In this document: in pieces, positions 11,984 to 37,034 of the stretch
How the letters are laid out: each line of letters begins with the position of its first letter
How positions within the stretch are numbered: the first letter of the stretch is position 1
Assembly: GCA_002011125.2 (NCBI GenBank)
Contig: MTMF02000018.1
Span: forward strand, 1 to 37,034
DNA: 37,034 bases
Direction of reading: 5' to 3'
From: Candidatus Hydrothermarchaeum profundi
GTDB taxonomy: Archaea > Hydrothermarchaeota > Hydrothermarchaeia > Hydrothermarchaeales > Hydrothermarchaeaceae
Notes under the pieces: model-generated
Database searches by the model: none
Seen by the model: the letters and a program-made list of their open reading frames with translations, nothing else
What the model was told of the DNA's origin: nothing
Program-made: the position numbers and the translations under genes

Positions 11984-12310
11984 TCACTGCTCGTAACCAC
12001 CTATTGTTATACTTGAACCGTTTGTGTATGAACTTACCTGAGCAACTACAGAGGTAGCAAACTCAGGACCATTTCTTATGTCAGTAATAGCTTTCGTATC
12101 AGTAGCTGGTACCTGAACAACCAGCATTTTTGTTCCTGTAGCACTAGCACCATCCCATATAGTTACTGTAACTGCAGAACCTTCTTTATTAGCAACGATT
12201 ATATCAGTTAATCTGAACGTCCTACCTGTACTTACCGTATAAACTGTCTTATCGGTATTAGCTGCTGTGAAGTCAGCTTCGGCAGATTTAGGAGCACCAT
12301 CTCTCTTCAT
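11984..12310 (-). CDS. Small beta-sandwich structural protein
   Basis: TVYTV..G.TFRLTDIIVAN pattern. Confidence 0.65.
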   Translation of the reverse strand: MKRDGAPKSAEADFTAANTDKTVYTVSTGRTFRLTDIIVANKEGSAVTVTIWDGASATGTKMLVVQVPATDTKAITDIRNGPEFATSVVAQVSSYTNGSSITIGGYEQ

Positions 12311-29315: not shown

Positions 29316-29613
29316 TCAACTCATCAGCTTTGAAAGCCTTATTGAAAGCCTTATACCAATCAAGTTCAGTCTCTTTCACTAACCTCATCACGACATCCCA
29401 TTCTTGCTCATACCTCGTAATATCCACTTTCGAAAGTTTCTTCAGAAAGTCAATGAACTCATCTACCTTTACCTCACCGTATAACTCAAGATTCAGCATC
29501 ACAACAGGTATCTCATCCTCATCTCTAACTGACATCCCTTTAATTCCTACATCCATACCATATACTCTAAAAGATATTGTCAAACCCTCATTCATTTTCT
29601 TCTTCACCTCCAA
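29269..29613 (-). CDS. Hypothetical protein
   Basis: Likely start MNEG after GGAGGTGA. Confidence 0.65.
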   Translation of the reverse strand: MEVKKKMNEGLTISFRVYGMDVGIKGMSVRDEDEIPVVMLNLELYGEVKVDEFIDFLKKLSKVDITRYEQEWDVVMRLVKETELDWYKAFNKAFKADELNERGEEDGVQGDESS

Positions 29614-29803
29614 ATAACCTCTTCTCCTGCTCCAGTATGAGCTTATACAAATCTTCCTCTAACTCACGTATATACCTAGCAGTCTCGACATACCCAGCAA
29701 CAGCAAGTAATTGCCCAGCTTTTGATAGTGTCGCAAGTCCCACAGTTGCAGTAACTAAACCAGCTACTTTTTTAGCAAATTCTTTATCAGTCATATATAC
29801 CAC
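29588..29803 (-). CDS. Hypothetical protein
   Basis: Operon packing. Confidence 0.65.
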   Translation of the reverse strand: MVYMTDKEFAKKVAGLVTATVGLATLSKAGQLLAVAGYVETARYIRELEEDLYKLILEQEKRLFGGEEENE

Positions 29804-29998
29804 CTACATATTTTTTAACTCCCATATCGCAAAGTCTGGTAAAGTTTTAACCTTTCCAATGAAATCACTAAACATCTCTTGACAAGCAGTAACTAAAGGA
29901 CAGAACCTAGTAAAGTCTACCTCTATATCATCCTGCAACTTCTTTTTCGCCCAATCGCAAAACTCTTTAACAGGACACTTATCACAATCAACCTTCAT
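29804..29998 (-). CDS. Small Cys-rich protein
   Basis: CDKCPVKEFC...CPL. Confidence 0.7.
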   Translation of the reverse strand: MKVDCDKCPVKEFCDWAKKKLQDDIEVDFTRFCPLVTACQEMFSDFIGKVKTLPDFAIWELKNM

Positions 29999-30197
29999 CT
30001 ACAATCCACCTCACCTTACCTTTTATTACTTTCTCCAATACCCTACCTATTATCTCTCTACCACAGTTTATACATACCACCATATAATCCCCGAAATGTA
30101 CATACCTATCAAAATCGTCAGCGTAGAACATTCCTCCAACAGCAACACCGTCTTTCACTACAACATTCCCACACTTCTTACATTTAATCCTCAACAA
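29988..30197 (-). CDS. Zinc-ribbon protein
   Basis: CKKCG...CINCG. Confidence 0.7.
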   Translation of the reverse strand: MLRIKCKKCGNVVVKDGVAVGGMFYADDFDRYVHFGDYMVVCINCGREIIGRVLEKVIKGKVRWIVDEG

Positions 30198-30255
30198 CCA
30201 CCACCTCTCTTACCCGCTATGCATTCTCCAAATCTTAACACGCTTAAAACTCACT

Positions 30256-30447
30256 TCAACCACCTGACCTAACAGCAAATACCACCGTGTTACTTGCAAC
30301 AAGATAACTGGCAATCACATCGTACTTCATCAGAACCTCAACAGCCTTTTTTATATCTTCCAGTTCTTCACGCTTAAAATTGCGTATAAGTCTAACACTT
30401 ACAACCAGCTTACTTCCGTCCGAACTTACATTAATTCTCCTATCCAT
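30256..30447 (-). CDS. Hypothetical protein
   Basis: GGAGGTGA SD directly after BHB element 1. Confidence 0.7.
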   Translation of the reverse strand: MDRRINVSSDGSKLVVSVRLIRNFKREELEDIKKAVEVLMKYDVIASYLVASNTVVFAVRSGG

Positions 30448-30462
30448 TTATATCACCTCCTT

Positions 30463-30624
30463 TAGAGCTCTCCCCCACTACCAGACGTACACTCATGCTG
30501 GAACGGGAGGATTTCGCAAACCACCACTATTAGTAAAGCTCACTGACTATCACTCTGGTACAATCATACACTGCGTGGTTCACGCCAGCACCAAGTATAC
30601 ATCTGATAGCGCTTAGGGGCTCTA
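30463..30624 (-). ncRNA. Structured RNA closed by a canonical BHB motif (element 1)
   Basis: UAGAGC-CCCU-AAG-19 bp stem ... stem-GGGG-AGA-GCUCUA; five G-U pairs that work only on the minus strand. Confidence 0.8.
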
Positions 30625-30885
30625 TGCACCTACCACTTCTCTATCAGTTCTTACCTCTACATCGGTAATATATATAACTTCAAGCAAAGCACAATACTTA
30701 ATAATCTTTACCACCTTCGGTCCAAACATACCCTGTAAGCGTTCATCATCTACAATCTTATCTATGTACAACACCCTAACATCGCTAGCATTTGAACGAT
30801 ACTCCTCTACACGTTTAGCTAAACCATCCATAGTAACATCCTTGACTACCTCATACTTTCTTTTTATTTTCTTTCCTACCAACAT
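30622..30885 (-). CDS. Hypothetical protein
   Basis: GGTGA SD before MLVGKK. Confidence 0.7.
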   Translation of the reverse strand: MLVGKKIKRKYEVVKDVTMDGLAKRVEEYRSNASDVRVLYIDKIVDDERLQGMFGPKVVKIIKYCALLEVIYITDVEVRTDREVVGA

Positions 30886-31099
30886 CTTTATCACCACCAT
30901 AAAACATATTAACCCTATACCTCCTCCAAAAAACCTCGAGTACAACCAAAGGACCAAATAGAACTATCATAGCACCCAATAACACCAGCAGTATTGACGA
31001 AACACCTAACCCGTATCCAACAATCATACCGCCGTATGTAAAGCAACACGAAACGCAAACAAACTCTGCATCACGTCTACTCAGACCCACTATCACCAC
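30851..31099 (-). CDS. 2-TM membrane protein
   Basis: Hydrophobic segments, basic tail. Confidence 0.6.
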   Translation of the reverse strand: MVIVGLSRRDAEFVCVSCCFTYGGMIVGYGLGVSSILLVLLGAMIVLFGPLVVLEVFWRRYRVNMFYGGDKDVGRKENKKKV

Positions 31100-31847
31100 C
31101 TACAAACATCTTAACCAGTAATTTATCTACCTCCTTTATCCTAGCATACACATCTTTACCCCTATTCTTTCTTATTATCCCGTACCACCTCTTCTCATTA
31201 TTGCTTATCTCAACTCCCATATCTATGATAGTATCGAACTTCCTGAAAACCGAACTCTCTAATCTTTCCCTTGTCTTAGTATCACCTATCGGATGACTAG
31301 TACATATAAAATTGTATCCCAAATCTACCATATCGTATATAACTTTCAGCAAATCATCGTATAACTTATTATACGACTGCCACGGCAGTGTAAACGTATC
31401 ACTATCCGTTATATTAAACACTTTCTCTCCTATAACATAGTAGCCCTGTGAAATAAACTTACCCTCAAGATACCTCCTATGTAGCTCCATCACCTCGTTA
31501 ACACTATCAAGTACAATCAGGTCAGCATCACTCTTTATAACTTTCTTATAAGCCTGTCTAAACCCACCTCTATACATTCCGTCATCCACTTTCTCTACCT
31601 TACCATCATACCTTGGAGTTATTACCATCGTAATATTAGCTAACGACTCATCACTAATCTTTCCTGACTCATACAACGCAATTATCTCCTTCTGAGTACC
31701 ATACTCAGGGTCAATATATATTACCTTATCTCCTCTCTCTGAACATTTAGATGCTACCATCAAAGCACAATGAGTCTTCCCAGTACCTGTATCTCCTCTC
31801 AACAACACCTTATACTTCAACTGCCTTCGTATCGAATCAATTTTCAT
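31077..31847 (-). CDS. RecA-superfamily ATPase, Sak4/AAA_24-like recombinase
   Basis: GDTGTGKT, YIDPEYG, LIVLDS, CTSH, KNR. Confidence 0.8.
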   Translation of the reverse strand: MKIDSIRRQLKYKVLLRGDTGTGKTHCALMVASKCSERGDKVIYIDPEYGTQKEIIALYESGKISDESLANITMVITPRYDGKVEKVDDGMYRGGFRQAYKKVIKSDADLIVLDSVNEVMELHRRYLEGKFISQGYYVIGEKVFNITDSDTFTLPWQSYNKLYDDLLKVIYDMVDLGYNFICTSHPIGDTKTRERLESSVFRKFDTIIDMGVEISNNEKRWYGIIRKNRGKDVYARIKEVDKLLVKMFVGGDSGSE

Positions 31848-31921
31848 CTAATACCTCCAACAGCTCATAATTACTAGCATAATTCCATCTCCAAACTTCT
31901 AACACTTCATCACACTTACAC

Positions 31922-32317
31922 TTATTCATATGCAACACATCCTAACGTCTTCATTAACATAAGTCTATATCCACTTGGAGTCAGACTAGGACTTCTTTCA
32001 GAATACCTAACAAACATCCTAAATGCCTCATCTTCATCACTAGTTATAGTGCACAAAAACGGCAAACTCGGACCAGTAGGTGGTATCCATACCAGCATAT
32101 ACTTGTACACCACATCGTCAACTGCAATCTTTTTAGTACTTTTAGCACTCTCAATATCTACATAACCCTCAAGTATCTCCTCTAACCTAAGTATCATCTC
32201 TACAACCTGTCTCAACGCCTCAGGACCGCGACTCTCTAAAACTTTACCCATAGCATCATAGTTATCTGCAAAACTTCTCCTAGTATCAAACATACCTCCA
32301 CTCCATTCAACTTTCAT
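31922..32317 (-). CDS. Hypothetical protein (true start MKVEW)
   Basis: GGGGTGA SD, which lies inside BHB element 2. Confidence 0.7.
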   Translation of the reverse strand: MKVEWSGGMFDTRRSFADNYDAMGKVLESRGPEALRQVVEMILRLEEILEGYVDIESAKSTKKIAVDDVVYKYMLVWIPPTGPSLPFLCTITSDEDEAFRMFVRYSERSPSLTPSGYRLMLMKTLGCVAYE

Positions 32318-32322
32318 ATTAT

Positions 32323-32409
32323 CACCCCATACCGCATGGGCAGCAGAAAAGGCACGGAGGGTGAATAAGTATGTATGGCACAATTCAACTGCCCATGTAT
32401 CGGCGGGTA
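32323..32409 (-). ncRNA. Structured RNA closed by a canonical BHB motif (element 2)
   Basis: UACCC-GCCG-AUA-CAUGGGCAG ... CUGCCCAUG-CGGU-AUG-GGGUG. Confidence 0.72.
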
Positions 32410-32410
32410 T

Positions 32411-32440
32411 AAAAAATAAAAGTCCAGCATTAGCTGGACT
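32411..32440 (-). terminator. Hairpin plus U-tract terminator
   Basis: 8-bp stem AGTCCAGC/GCTGGACT over the stop codon then TTTATTTTTT. Confidence 0.6.
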
Positions 32441-32729
32441 TCGGAACTTTCTTAACTGCAATAGCCACTATACCATCTTTCTTGCTGGAAGCAGCTGCCT
32501 TTACCTCAATACCAGCCCTATCACAAGCCTCGACAAGCTTCACTTTAGAGTAGTAGTCCTTGTATTTTATATCGCTACCACTGTGAAACTCCATTATCTC
32601 TTCAAATGTAAAGTGGTATGTCCCGGGGCTGGTTACGTGCTCCTTGACATAGGAAACAAGCCCATCCATATCCCAAGCTCCTCTAGCCTTCAACTCAATT
32701 TTCAATTCGTCAGATACCTTCTTAGGCAT
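32430..32729 (-). CDS. Hypothetical protein
   Basis: GGAGGTG SD. Confidence 0.75.
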   Translation of the reverse strand: MPKKVSDELKIELKARGAWDMDGLVSYVKEHVTSPGTYHFTFEEIMEFHSGSDIKYKDYYSKVKLVEACDRAGIEVKAAASSKKDGIVAIAVKKVPKSS

Positions 32730-32740
32730 TTATACACCTC

Positions 32741-33247
32741 CTATAGTTCTATATCCAGTTCTTCAGCTTCAACAACACCAGCAAGCTTTTCCTCAATATC
32801 TGGTCTACCGGTGGTCCTATATGTCTTCACTTTCTTACCTCTCTCTCTGTACTCTGCAGGAGCGTCTTTCCACTCAACTCCTGCAATTGTAAACACTCTA
32901 CCTACAAGGTCAGATAAATCATTGAACTCTTTACCGTAGTCTCTCTTCAGTGCCACTACCATTCCCTGAGCAATTGTCTTGCTTATAAATAAATCAAAAT
33001 CGACGTCACTAACTTTACCGTCTTCAACTACATTTACCTTACAAACCCAGCTCTTCTCTATACCTCTCTCCTTCAGAGCATCAGCCTCAATCTTCTGTGG
33101 CTCGCTAGCAATTCTAACTGTCACAGCCTGTCCTATACCGGGCAACTGCAGTCTTCCACCAGCAGACGCCTTAACACTTGCCATCTTATTTAGTTTCTCC
33201 TCATCTCCCAAATCAAACTCCTCAATAAAGTCTTTCAAACCTGCCAT
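32741..33247 (-). CDS. Putative OB-fold single-stranded DNA-binding protein
   Basis: Beta-barrel pattern, LVGRVFTI, acidic C-terminus, near Sak4-like gene. Confidence 0.55.
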   Translation of the reverse strand: MAGLKDFIEEFDLGDEEKLNKMASVKASAGGRLQLPGIGQAVTVRIASEPQKIEADALKERGIEKSWVCKVNVVEDGKVSDVDFDLFISKTIAQGMVVALKRDYGKEFNDLSDLVGRVFTIAGVEWKDAPAEYRERGKKVKTYRTTGRPDIEEKLAGVVEAEELDIEL

Positions 33248-33259
33248 ACATACATCACC

Positions 33260-33571
33260 TCACTTCACCTGTACTATCCTTTCTATACAGTACCTATCAA
33301 CACCTTTACTACTTAAATATGCACTGACAACACTGAAGACAGCATCGTCCATAGTTCTAAACCCAAGTTCCGCTTTAATCAACGATAGTGCCTGATGCAC
33401 ATCGTCATGAACATGAATCGTCCTAACTGGTTGTCCCCTATTCACCGAAGAATCAAACAACTCTCTCCTAACACCGAAATATTGCACTGCATCCCTGACA
33501 ACATCTGCATACTTCTTTCCAAAAATTCGCATCACCCTGTATGTCGCATCACTCACAACTATAGACTTCAT
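33260..33571 (-). CDS. Tandem ribbon-helix-helix regulator
   Basis: KSIVVSDATY...ADVVRDAV and RTIHVHDDVHQAL...TMDDAV. Confidence 0.75.
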   Translation of the reverse strand: MKSIVVSDATYRVMRIFGKKYADVVRDAVQYFGVRRELFDSSVNRGQPVRTIHVHDDVHQALSLIKAELGFRTMDDAVFSVVSAYLSSKGVDRYCIERIVQVK

Positions 33572-33573
33572 CC

Positions 33574-33612
33574 TGATATACATCATGTATATCATATATA
33601 TATCTTTTTCGC
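33574..33612 (-). promoter_or_regulatory. Promoter with perfect palindromic operator
   Basis: GAAAAAG-ATATATATA then TGATATACAT-N-ATGTATATCA (33574-33594) just before the ATG. Confidence 0.65.
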
Positions 33613-33651
33613 TTTTGTATTTTTATAAAAATAATAGAATTATAAATTTCA

Positions 33652-33861
33652 TCACTGACTTTCCTTGCCATTATCTATAACCCATTTCTGTCCACATGAC
33701 GGGCATTCATCAGTCTCAAGCTCAGCATCCTCATGCGATTCATCCATGAAAAATTCAAACCCGCACATACGACACCTTGCAACAACAACGCGTTTCTCAA
33801 ATATCTCAATTCCGACATGCCTAGGCGGTTCAGGAATCTCTCCCGGCAATTTCTTCGCCAT
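33652..33861 (-). CDS. Zinc-ribbon protein
   Basis: CRMCGFEF...CPSCG. Confidence 0.7.
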   Translation of the reverse strand: MAKKLPGEIPEPPRHVGIEIFEKRVVVARCRMCGFEFFMDESHEDAELETDECPSCGQKWVIDNGKESQ

Positions 33862-35645: not shown

Positions 35646-35800
35646 TTCTATCACCGTCCAAAAATCCATTAACATATCCATTAATCCAAGCCCTAAGCTC
35701 ATCAAATCCCATAGGCTCACTGTAAACATCTACACCTGCACTAGTATACATGTCCCACGCCAGTACTTACATCCAGAAAAAACGCAAACCGCTTTATCAG

Positions 35801-35926
35801 TCATTCTCCATCACCAACCTCATAAGTAATTGGCTCACATTCGATACCACAATTAGGACACAAGCCTAGGACCGCATCCTCTGACTCCCATCCACAGCTT
35901 GGACATCGACCATAATTACCAGTCAT
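35801..35926 (-). CDS. 41-aa zinc ribbon (not in ORF track)
   Basis: CPSCGW...CPNCG; ATGA coupling. Confidence 0.65.
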   Translation of the reverse strand: MTGNYGRCPSCGWESEDAVLGLCPNCGIECEPITYEVGDGE

Positions 35927-37020: not shown

Positions 37021-37034
37021 AAAAAAAAAAAAAG
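37021..37034 (-). repeat. Right inverted terminal repeat (A)13G
   Basis: Reverse complement of 1-14; A-run is 14 long including 37020. Confidence 0.75.

Follow-up and report, generated by a model that had tools for sequence, protein, structure and literature searches.

We analyzed the whole contig C18 (37,034 bp, GC 0.367; here called the window) of the archaeal assembly of Candidatus Hydrothermarchaeum profundi (2.19 Mb in 19 contigs). An intergenic spacer of this window carries on the minus (coding) strand an 87-nt element, hereafter E2 (32409..32323). According to the folding models, E2 forms, as RNA, a genuine canonical bulge-helix-bulge (BHB; hBHBh') motif between two cistrons, i.e., the kind of structure that is cut by the archaeal splicing endonuclease EndA. 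Directly observed are the geometry, rarity and strand specificity of E2, its location between genes and the enzymes encoded in the assembly. Whether E2 is also a real EndA-processed cassette, with 70 nt cut from a read-through viral mRNA, we regard as evenly balanced.

A direct reading of the letters agrees with the minus-strand sequence and canonical BHB layout given in the original prediction. The 5' arm comprises the outer-helix strand UACCC (32405..32409), the central-helix strand GCCG (32401..32404), the bulge AUA (32398..32400) and the inner-helix strand (32388..32397) with the core CAUGGGCAG (32397-32389). The 3' arm comprises the inner-helix strand (32335..32344) with the core CUGCCCAUG (32343-32335), the central-helix strand CGGU (32331..32334), the bulge AUG (32328..32330) and the outer-helix strand GGGUG (32323..32327), all on the minus strand. 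Exactly 4 bp, i.e., three G-C pairs and one G-U pair, lie between the two 3-nt bulges, and flanking helices are present on both sides, with an outer helix of 5 bp and an inner helix of 9-10 bp (nine Watson-Crick pairs and one U-G pair). The loop measures 45 nt, or 43 nt (32345..32387) if the additional U-G pair is counted, is largely unpaired and contains, as had been noted from the sequence, the stretch UCACCCUCC (32364-32356) resembling an anti-Shine-Dalgarno (anti-SD) sequence. The order of elements on each strand in the 5' to 3' direction (helix, 4-bp helix, bulge, helix) corresponds to the pre-tRNA topology.

RNAfold returns the BHB as the minimum free energy (MFE) fold of the 87-nt element (-31.3 kcal/mol, z = -2.63; 4 of 200 shuffles as stable). 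The BHB is again the MFE fold in a 111-nt context (z = -2.32), in which the outer helix is lengthened by four A-U pairs past a 1-nt bulge and pairing extends to within 3 nt of the downstream AUG. Both bulges are unpaired in the MFE and centroid folds, and imposing all BHB pairs on E2 costs nothing relative to the MFE (-31.3 vs. -31.3 kcal/mol). With 0 to 200 nt of flanking sequence at 37 °C, the 4-bp helix has pair probabilities of 0.75-0.94 and the inner helix has values of 0.88-0.99. Folding is strand-specific, with sense and antisense MFEs of -31.3 and -27.1 kcal/mol for E2, -68.6 and -42.4 kcal/mol for a sister BHB in the window (element 1, see below) and -82.7 and -61.3 kcal/mol for an element in a related locus (L004, see below), which argues for an RNA rather than a DNA structure. 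Intergenic spacers account for about 6% of the contig, and E2 as well as element 1 are found in them, on the coding strand. The GC contents of the two elements (0.529 and 0.494, vs. 0.368 for the contig) fall into the top 0.4-0.6% of contig windows of the same length. Rfam 15 yields no match in the window at the gathering score and none at E <= 1 over 29580-33347, and ARAGORN finds no tRNA gene in the window.

The rarity of the motif was assessed with a strict BHB descriptor (3-4-3 geometry, outer helix of at least 4 bp, inner helix of at least 6 bp, span of at most 300 nt, both strands). The descriptor recovers the anticodon-stem BHBs in four of the six tRNA calls to which ARAGORN assigns an intron (Ser-cga, Lys-ttt, Ser-gga and Gly-ccc) and finds no BHB in the intron-called tRNA-Trp and in a doubtful "His" call. 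Two of these tRNA introns pass the genome-wide filter, and their scores (Gly-ccc, 19.0; Lys-ttt, 17.5) are below those of E2 (20.5) and element 1 (25.5). Among 2183 hits in the whole assembly, element 1 ranks first and E2 is tied for ranks 5-7. Hits scoring at least 20.5 number three in the 37-kb contig vs. four in the remaining 2,149,247 bp of the assembly. In dinucleotide shuffles of the window, a score of 20.5 is reached in 3 of 300 and a score of 25.5 in none of 300, with a mean of 0.013 hits of at least 20.5 per shuffle. The genome-wide search and the shuffled windows support the earlier expectation that the recurrence of the motif is unlikely to be due to chance. Moreover, when 150 geometries are compared (bulges of 1-5 nt, central helix of 2-7 bp), the three best loci of the window are all compatible with 3-4-3, which is the best of the 150 geometries for E2 and is fitted unambiguously. 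BHBs with arms 300-4000 nt apart were also considered for the window and discarded, the best score of 18.0 being noise.

Element 1 (30463..30624, minus strand) is the sister BHB of the same window and has an outer helix of 6 bp, an inner helix of 20 bp and a loop of 96 nt. Its central helix pairs CCCU with GGGG between the bulges AAG and AGA. The MFE fold (-70.3 kcal/mol, z = -3.17; none of 200 shuffles as stable) is 3-4-3, a 4-4-4 register scores about equally, and imposing all BHB pairs costs 0.2 kcal/mol. The predicted product (30612..30470, 143 nt) would start at the stop codon UAG of the upstream gene and end one base short of the Shine-Dalgarno (SD) sequence of the next gene, which lies just outside the outer helix. 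Within an otherwise rod-like fold, the predicted product exposes an unpaired stretch of 13 nt, AAAUCCUCCCGUU. Element 1 has neither a T-run nor a TATA-like sequence upstream.

Relatives of the window provide a third, weakly supporting case. The ATPase encoded in the window has 12 metagenome homologs with 46-54% identity, some of them on contigs of about 30 kb, and three related loci among the matches listed in the metagenome scan (L004, L005 and L006) were compared. L004 (4,023 bp, about 50% identical) contains a BHB-compatible hairpin at 578-744, one base past the stop codon of the ortholog of a 111-aa gene and ahead of the ortholog (45% identity) of a gene for an SSB-like protein. The spacer between these two genes measures 12 nt in the window and 294 nt in L004, where it contains the hairpin and is highly structured (z = -5.1), a presence/absence difference at an orthologous junction. 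The hairpin occupies a different intergenic slot from E2 and ends 126 nt ahead of the next start codon. Directly after it, a second strong hairpin (about 751-823) is located within L004 745-870 (plus strand). In L005 and L006, no BHB scores above noise. The 99-aa gene upstream of E2 has a weak homolog of its C-terminal part in L004.

The three elements do not appear to be copies of each other. In agreement with the original prediction, E2 lacks sequence similarity to element 1, since their local alignment score is reached by 792 of 1000 shuffles and blastn finds no match. The corresponding counts are 960 of 1000 for E2 and the L004 element and 659 of 1000 for element 1 and the L004 element, and blastn gives no cross-match among the three. 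Beyond the BHB, their predicted architectures also differ. Motifs that seemed to be shared by eye ("UGAAUUGU.CC" and "CCUCCCGU") were dismissed, as the alignment scores are no better than those of shuffles. A second copy of element 1 or E2 is not found in the assembly by blastn. Searches of a viral contig collection with the ATPase, the 131-aa protein downstream of E2, an ATPase alignment, the helicase and an SSB-like alignment as queries returned no relatives, and tblastn gave no match in a phage collection. Among 38 genomes of the phylum, the ATPase occurs only in the window's own, and a same-family search gave a weak match only. Two bacterial P-loop matches from the scan of genome contigs were rejected as spurious.

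The enzymes that would act on such a motif are encoded in the assembly. A single 172-aa open reading frame (ORF) with the N- and C-terminal EndA domains (PF01974 and PF02778) is found at C9:1799026-1799487, and the RtcB ligase is encoded at C9:573208-574512. From its lone short subunit we take EndA to be a strictly homotetrameric enzyme. EndA cuts a canonical BHB after the second nucleotide of each bulge, and the 37/38 tRNA introns of this host (introns at position 37/38) are consistent with this rule. The cuts proposed for E2 at 32399/32398 in the 5' bulge and 32329/32328 in the 3' bulge, and the predicted 70-nt product (32398..32329), follow from the same rule and stand as originally placed.

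Based on the structural models, we infer transcription across both arms, cleavage, circularisation and any effect on translation as follows. Transcripts would read through the T-run upstream of E2 and thereby carry both arms, and host EndA would cut both 3-nt bulges at the predicted positions. The released 70-nt RNA would be circularised by RtcB. The flanking mRNA might be re-ligated, in which case E2 would be an intron of an untranslated region. Alternatively, it might be left as two mRNAs, which would make E2 an intercistronic processing site and an archaeal counterpart of the RNase III sites of phage T7. E2, element 1 and the L004 element may together represent BHB cassettes of unrelated sequence that come and go between genes of this virus group. 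More broadly, an archaeal virus group might use host EndA and RtcB as an mRNA-processing system in which BHB cassettes are excised from the replication-operon transcript, yielding heat-stable circular small RNAs and a reset 5' end or leader for the next cistron; we put this forward tentatively and hold it to be somewhat more likely to fail than to stand. Splicing across E2 would not generate a fusion protein because the upstream stop codon lies within the 5' exon, and we dismissed exon fusion, the same frame after splicing being a 1-in-3 coincidence.

Several observations weigh against processing of E2 by EndA. As the original prediction stated, E2 follows a terminator-like hairpin with a T-run (32411..32442, minus strand), recognizable by sequence only, in which the hairpin loop contains the stop codon TAA (32432-32430) of the upstream gene (32430..32729, minus strand, 99 aa; no match in Pfam or PHROGs). 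This is the sole terminator-like site found in 30300-33700, and it adjoins E2 at a distance of 2 nt. Archaeal transcription stops at oligo-T tracts. Furthermore, the 3' end of the T-run is TATA-like and could place a transcription start inside the loop. With the T-run and a possible TATA sequence upstream, the BHB can form only on transcripts that read through or that start further upstream. Thus, the existence of a transcript carrying both arms is the main uncertainty. The outer helix is only moderately stable, its minimum pair probability being 0.09-0.46 (37 °C, 0-200 nt of flank). The score of E2 is not unique either, as four host loci match or exceed it and none of them is a known EndA substrate, and in the third hit of the window, at 12089-12278 on the plus strand, the 4-bp helix is absent from the MFE fold. 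Hence, the score alone is no proof of function. In L004, the BHB register is less stable than the MFE fold by 3.8 kcal/mol, and its score is equalled by that of a 4-2-4 register. No homologous copy of E2 was found in the assembly or in the relatives compared, and the assignment of the contig to its host is based on binning only.

The relation between E2 and the downstream gene bears on what processing could achieve. The earlier claim that E2 buries the SD of this gene (31922..32317, minus strand, 131 aa; no match in Pfam or PHROGs) is borne out. The SD GGGGUGA (32328-32322) consists of the third nucleotide of the 3' bulge, G32328, and the outer helix, whose strand GGGUG forms its core, and it is followed after 5 nt by the ATG start codon (32317). 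In partition-function models at 37 °C, the SD is unpaired with a mean probability of 0.33 before processing. The value is 0.37 once the exons are ligated after excision, 0.37 as well with the 5' cut alone or with a transcription start inside the loop, and 0.90 in the unligated 3' fragment. The order of SD accessibility across these RNA forms is unchanged at 60 and 75 °C. Ligation leaves the SD no freer because the joined exons retain the outer helix, now a 5-bp stem closed by a loop of 7 nt, and removal of the 5' arm leaves it only 0.37 free because it is then paired by UCACCCU of the loop. No SD is covered by element 1 or the L004 element, so SD burial is particular to E2 and not a common property of the elements.

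The chief alternative arises from the uncertain read-through. E2 might be part of an ordinary structured leader or an intergenic hairpin, its BHB shape being coincidental and EndA uninvolved. The T-run directly upstream would end the preceding transcript, and the TATA-like tract (about 32417-32408), which by eye resembles the TATA-like sequence ahead of the leaderless first gene of the operon, would start a new transcript inside the element at about 32385. The 131-aa gene might then be regulated by pairing of the loop anti-SD with the SD, or its mRNA might merely be stabilised; without the 5' arm, the MFE fold indeed pairs UCACCC with the SD, whose occlusion is then similar to that in the full hairpin. 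A coincidental shape would also fit the four host loci that have this score and no known EndA role. However, folds lacking the 5' arm do not exceed shuffles in stability (z = -0.28 and +0.59), and a leader does not explain why a 5' arm rich in GC should match the 3' arm perfectly with exactly the 3-4-3 layout, nor why element 1 has the same geometry without an upstream T-run or TATA. Given also the low number of hits expected per shuffled window, we consider this account possible and on the whole doubtful. The gating of translation by the splicing endonuclease, as originally proposed, assumes in contrast that EndA acts: the cut in the 3' bulge would create a new 5' end on the downstream mRNA, free its SD and thereby turn on the 131-aa gene. 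The position of the SD and its release in the unligated 3' product agree with this proposal, as does the lowered expression of the haloarchaeal gene HVO_1309 upon EndA repression, described in the excerpted text of PMC7714728. The proposal does not hold for spliced RNA, in which the SD stays occluded, so gating would need cleavage without the RtcB ligation that is normal for BHB exons, and the model is physically coherent only if the exons stay unjoined. Moreover, the other two elements cover no SD, and the outer helix would be weak at the high temperatures suggested by the GC content of the host's rRNA and tRNA. Overall, gating of this kind appears unlikely.

Alternatively, the excised RNAs themselves might be the product, the elements being small-RNA genes within an operon that are matured in the fashion of rRNA into stable circles (70 and 143 nt). 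These circles might act in trans, for instance via the exposed 43-nt loop of E2 or the CCUCC within it that resembles an anti-SD. In line with this idea, the basal stems are long (10, 20 and 17 bp) and enclose structured or open interiors, as in rRNA processing stems, the interiors are GC-rich and the loop of E2 is mostly unpaired, and circular BHB-derived RNAs are well documented in archaea according to the excerpted text of PMC7714728. In turn, the elements match no Rfam family even at E <= 1 and share neither conserved sequence nor architecture. The sole candidate target is a nadA-like ORF of the host, to whose 3' end (C9:592410-592426) 32342-32358 (minus strand) in the loop and stem of E2 is a perfect 17-nt complement; this match is not significant and was attributed to chance, since such a match occurs in 52 of 5000 shuffles of E2 and 44 of 37018 17-mer positions of the contig are also found in the host. 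A role as small-RNA genes is therefore improbable in our view. Least of all do we expect E2 to act as DNA instead of RNA, for example as an inverted repeat bound by a protein, as an origin or as a site of recombination. The 9-bp core arms do form a perfect inverted repeat, and the antisense strand of E2 folds nearly as well as the sense strand. However, the arms are 45 nt apart, three pairs of E2 are G-U and form on the sense strand only, and element 1 and the L004 element, with 12 G-U pairs each, are 21-26 kcal/mol less stable when folded from the antisense strand. In addition, E2 is located exactly between the stop codon region and the SD. A function in DNA is very improbable. Assignments to known RNA classes were likewise rejected: a permuted or split tRNA, a C/D-box RNA or an H/ACA RNA has no support from ARAGORN or Rfam, the box motifs having been sought by eye only. 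A CRISPR-type link between contig and assembly was also set aside, as exact matches are limited to about 25 scattered sites of 17-20 nt. A typical CRISPR spacer is far longer than that.

If E2 is processed by EndA, as the preferred reading holds, it can be compared with several known systems. tRNA introns and the processing stems of 16S and 23S rRNA have the same 3-4-3 geometry and the same strand topology, and element 1 and the L004 element resemble the rRNA processing stems in having long basal stems, whereas E2 lacks a tRNA or rRNA body. In phage T7, the RNase III sites are sequence-diverse intercistronic hairpins that are recognized by their shape by a host nuclease of rRNA maturation, and some of them affect downstream translation. 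The resemblance would lie in sequence-diverse intercistronic hairpins of a viral polycistronic transcript and a host RNA-maturation nuclease, while enzyme, structure and domain of life differ and EndA products are open to re-ligation or circularisation by RtcB. The splicing of HAC1/XBP1 mRNA by Ire1 and tRNA ligase likewise removes a segment of an mRNA without the spliceosome, by means of an endonuclease that recognizes structure; there, excision lifts a translational block and RtcB or tRNA ligase joins the exons. In contrast to E2, the Ire1 system is eukaryotic and stress-signalled and acts on stem-loop sites with no BHB.

Two archaeal mRNAs are closer in mechanism. The BHB intron in the cbf5 pre-mRNA of Crenarchaeota shows sporadic gain and loss among relatives, as far as the excerpted text of PMC2738675 describes it. 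It thus offers a precedent both for EndA-type splicing of a protein-coding transcript and for a scattered distribution. The cbf5 intron, however, is situated within the coding sequence and has to be removed, with ligation, for the protein to be made, whereas E2 lies outside any coding sequence. By analogy, the closest known resemblance to E2 in the material covered is the 5' untranslated region (UTR) of Haloferax volcanii HVO_1309, from which EndA excises a 46-nt BHB intron. In vitro cleavage by EndA and a circular form of the intron in vivo are reported there, and the gene is down-regulated upon EndA knock-down (PMC7714728, excerpted text). Both cases would involve a BHB-bounded segment in an untranslated mRNA leader. 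The HVO_1309 intron is chromosomal, monocistronic, conserved in haloarchaea and experimentally supported, whereas E2 is found between cistrons of a virus-like element, would release 70 nt, overlaps an SD, is not conserved in the relatives compared and is described computationally only.

In the excerpted text of PMC7714728, EndA substrates beyond tRNA and rRNA are very few, namely the cbf5 mRNA and one haloarchaeal 5' UTR. Full-text searches, limited to literature outside subscription-only papers and supplements, returned no published BHB from the transcripts of archaeal viruses; the nearest item is the unproven 12-bp "introns" of a rudivirus (PMC2738675, excerpted text). If the proposed processing is real, the elements described here would be the first EndA substrates found in a virus and would indicate that archaeal viruses exploit the host splicing machinery. 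They would also be a natural source of BHB-made circular RNAs, would allow BHB introns to be compared directly for gain and loss where orthologous genes adjoin, and would offer a simple shape descriptor to find more cases in metagenomic viral contigs.

The high-scoring host loci and the remaining hit of the window deserve separate mention, as they look like false positives or are of unclear meaning, with two of the four host loci within coding sequence. In the host gene mtbB (C9:1879781-1879912, plus strand; L010 982-1113), a BHB-shaped hairpin surrounds the in-frame UAG (Pyl) codon. The hypothetical excised piece would measure 117 nt, i.e., 39 codons, and the 3' arm overlaps an Rfam PYLIS_2 match (88.4 bits); this hairpin is probably a false positive of the descriptor. 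The locus C9:6592-6647 (minus strand; L017 993-1048) contains a BHB on the sense strand inside a 592-aa ORF, consisting entirely of Watson-Crick pairs (outer helix 9 bp, central helix 4 bp, inner helix 6 bp) with a hypothetical intron of 31 nt. At C9:1509917-1510171 (plus strand; L018 1018-1272), a 255-nt intergenic inverted repeat beside tRNA-Trp scores 21.5 and folds with a symmetric internal loop rather than a BHB, its interior being pyrimidine-rich and unstructured. The fourth locus is AT-rich. For the adjacent tRNA-Trp (C9:1510197-1510292, minus strand), ARAGORN calls an intron of 23 nt, and a relaxed motif or a misplaced intron call is possible. The window hit at 12089-12278 also scores 20.5, with an inner helix of 14 bp. 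It runs antisense to the ORF 11984-12310 on the non-coding strand and may be due to chance or represent an antisense RNA; its MFE fold without the 4-bp helix illustrates that the descriptor alone over-calls.

In our reading, the contig is a novel, linear, virus-like element of archaea whose replication module comprises a Sak4-like ATPase of the AAA_24 family (31077-31847), a helicase, a PCNA-like protein and a DNA methyltransferase. Further recognizable genes encode three Laminin_G_3 proteins and transglutaminase-like proteins; a match to a Cas4-like nuclease is weak (E 7e-4, below the Pfam cut-off), and the majority of the remaining ORFs have no family match in Pfam or PHROGs. Nearly all long ORFs are encoded on the minus strand, which is strongly purine-rich in its GC skew, and the GC skew of the contig goes down to -0.58 in places. 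DNA contigs from two DNA runs are identical to the window and show neither joints nor variants. Positions 1-14 are the reverse complement of 37021-37034 and thus form a 14-nt inverted terminal repeat, and the final 290 nt or so are very AT-rich (GC 0.17).

The rest of the assembly encodes 49 tRNAs according to ARAGORN, among them tRNA-Pyl, as well as the mtbB gene with its PYLIS element. The GC content averages 0.63 in the tRNAs and is 0.60 in the partial 16S gene, far above that of the genome (0.39), which suggests a thermophilic host. The 16S gene is truncated at a contig end, so that the rRNA processing stems of this host lie outside the comparison. In the window, a further intergenic gap (35730-35922, minus strand) is GC-rich (0.46) and moderately structured (z = -1.97), without a BHB. 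The conserved SSB-like protein of 168/170 aa (window 32741-33247, minus strand; L004 871-1383, plus strand) matches no Pfam or PHROG family and, by eye, ends in an acidic tail (…DIEL) in the fashion of SSB.

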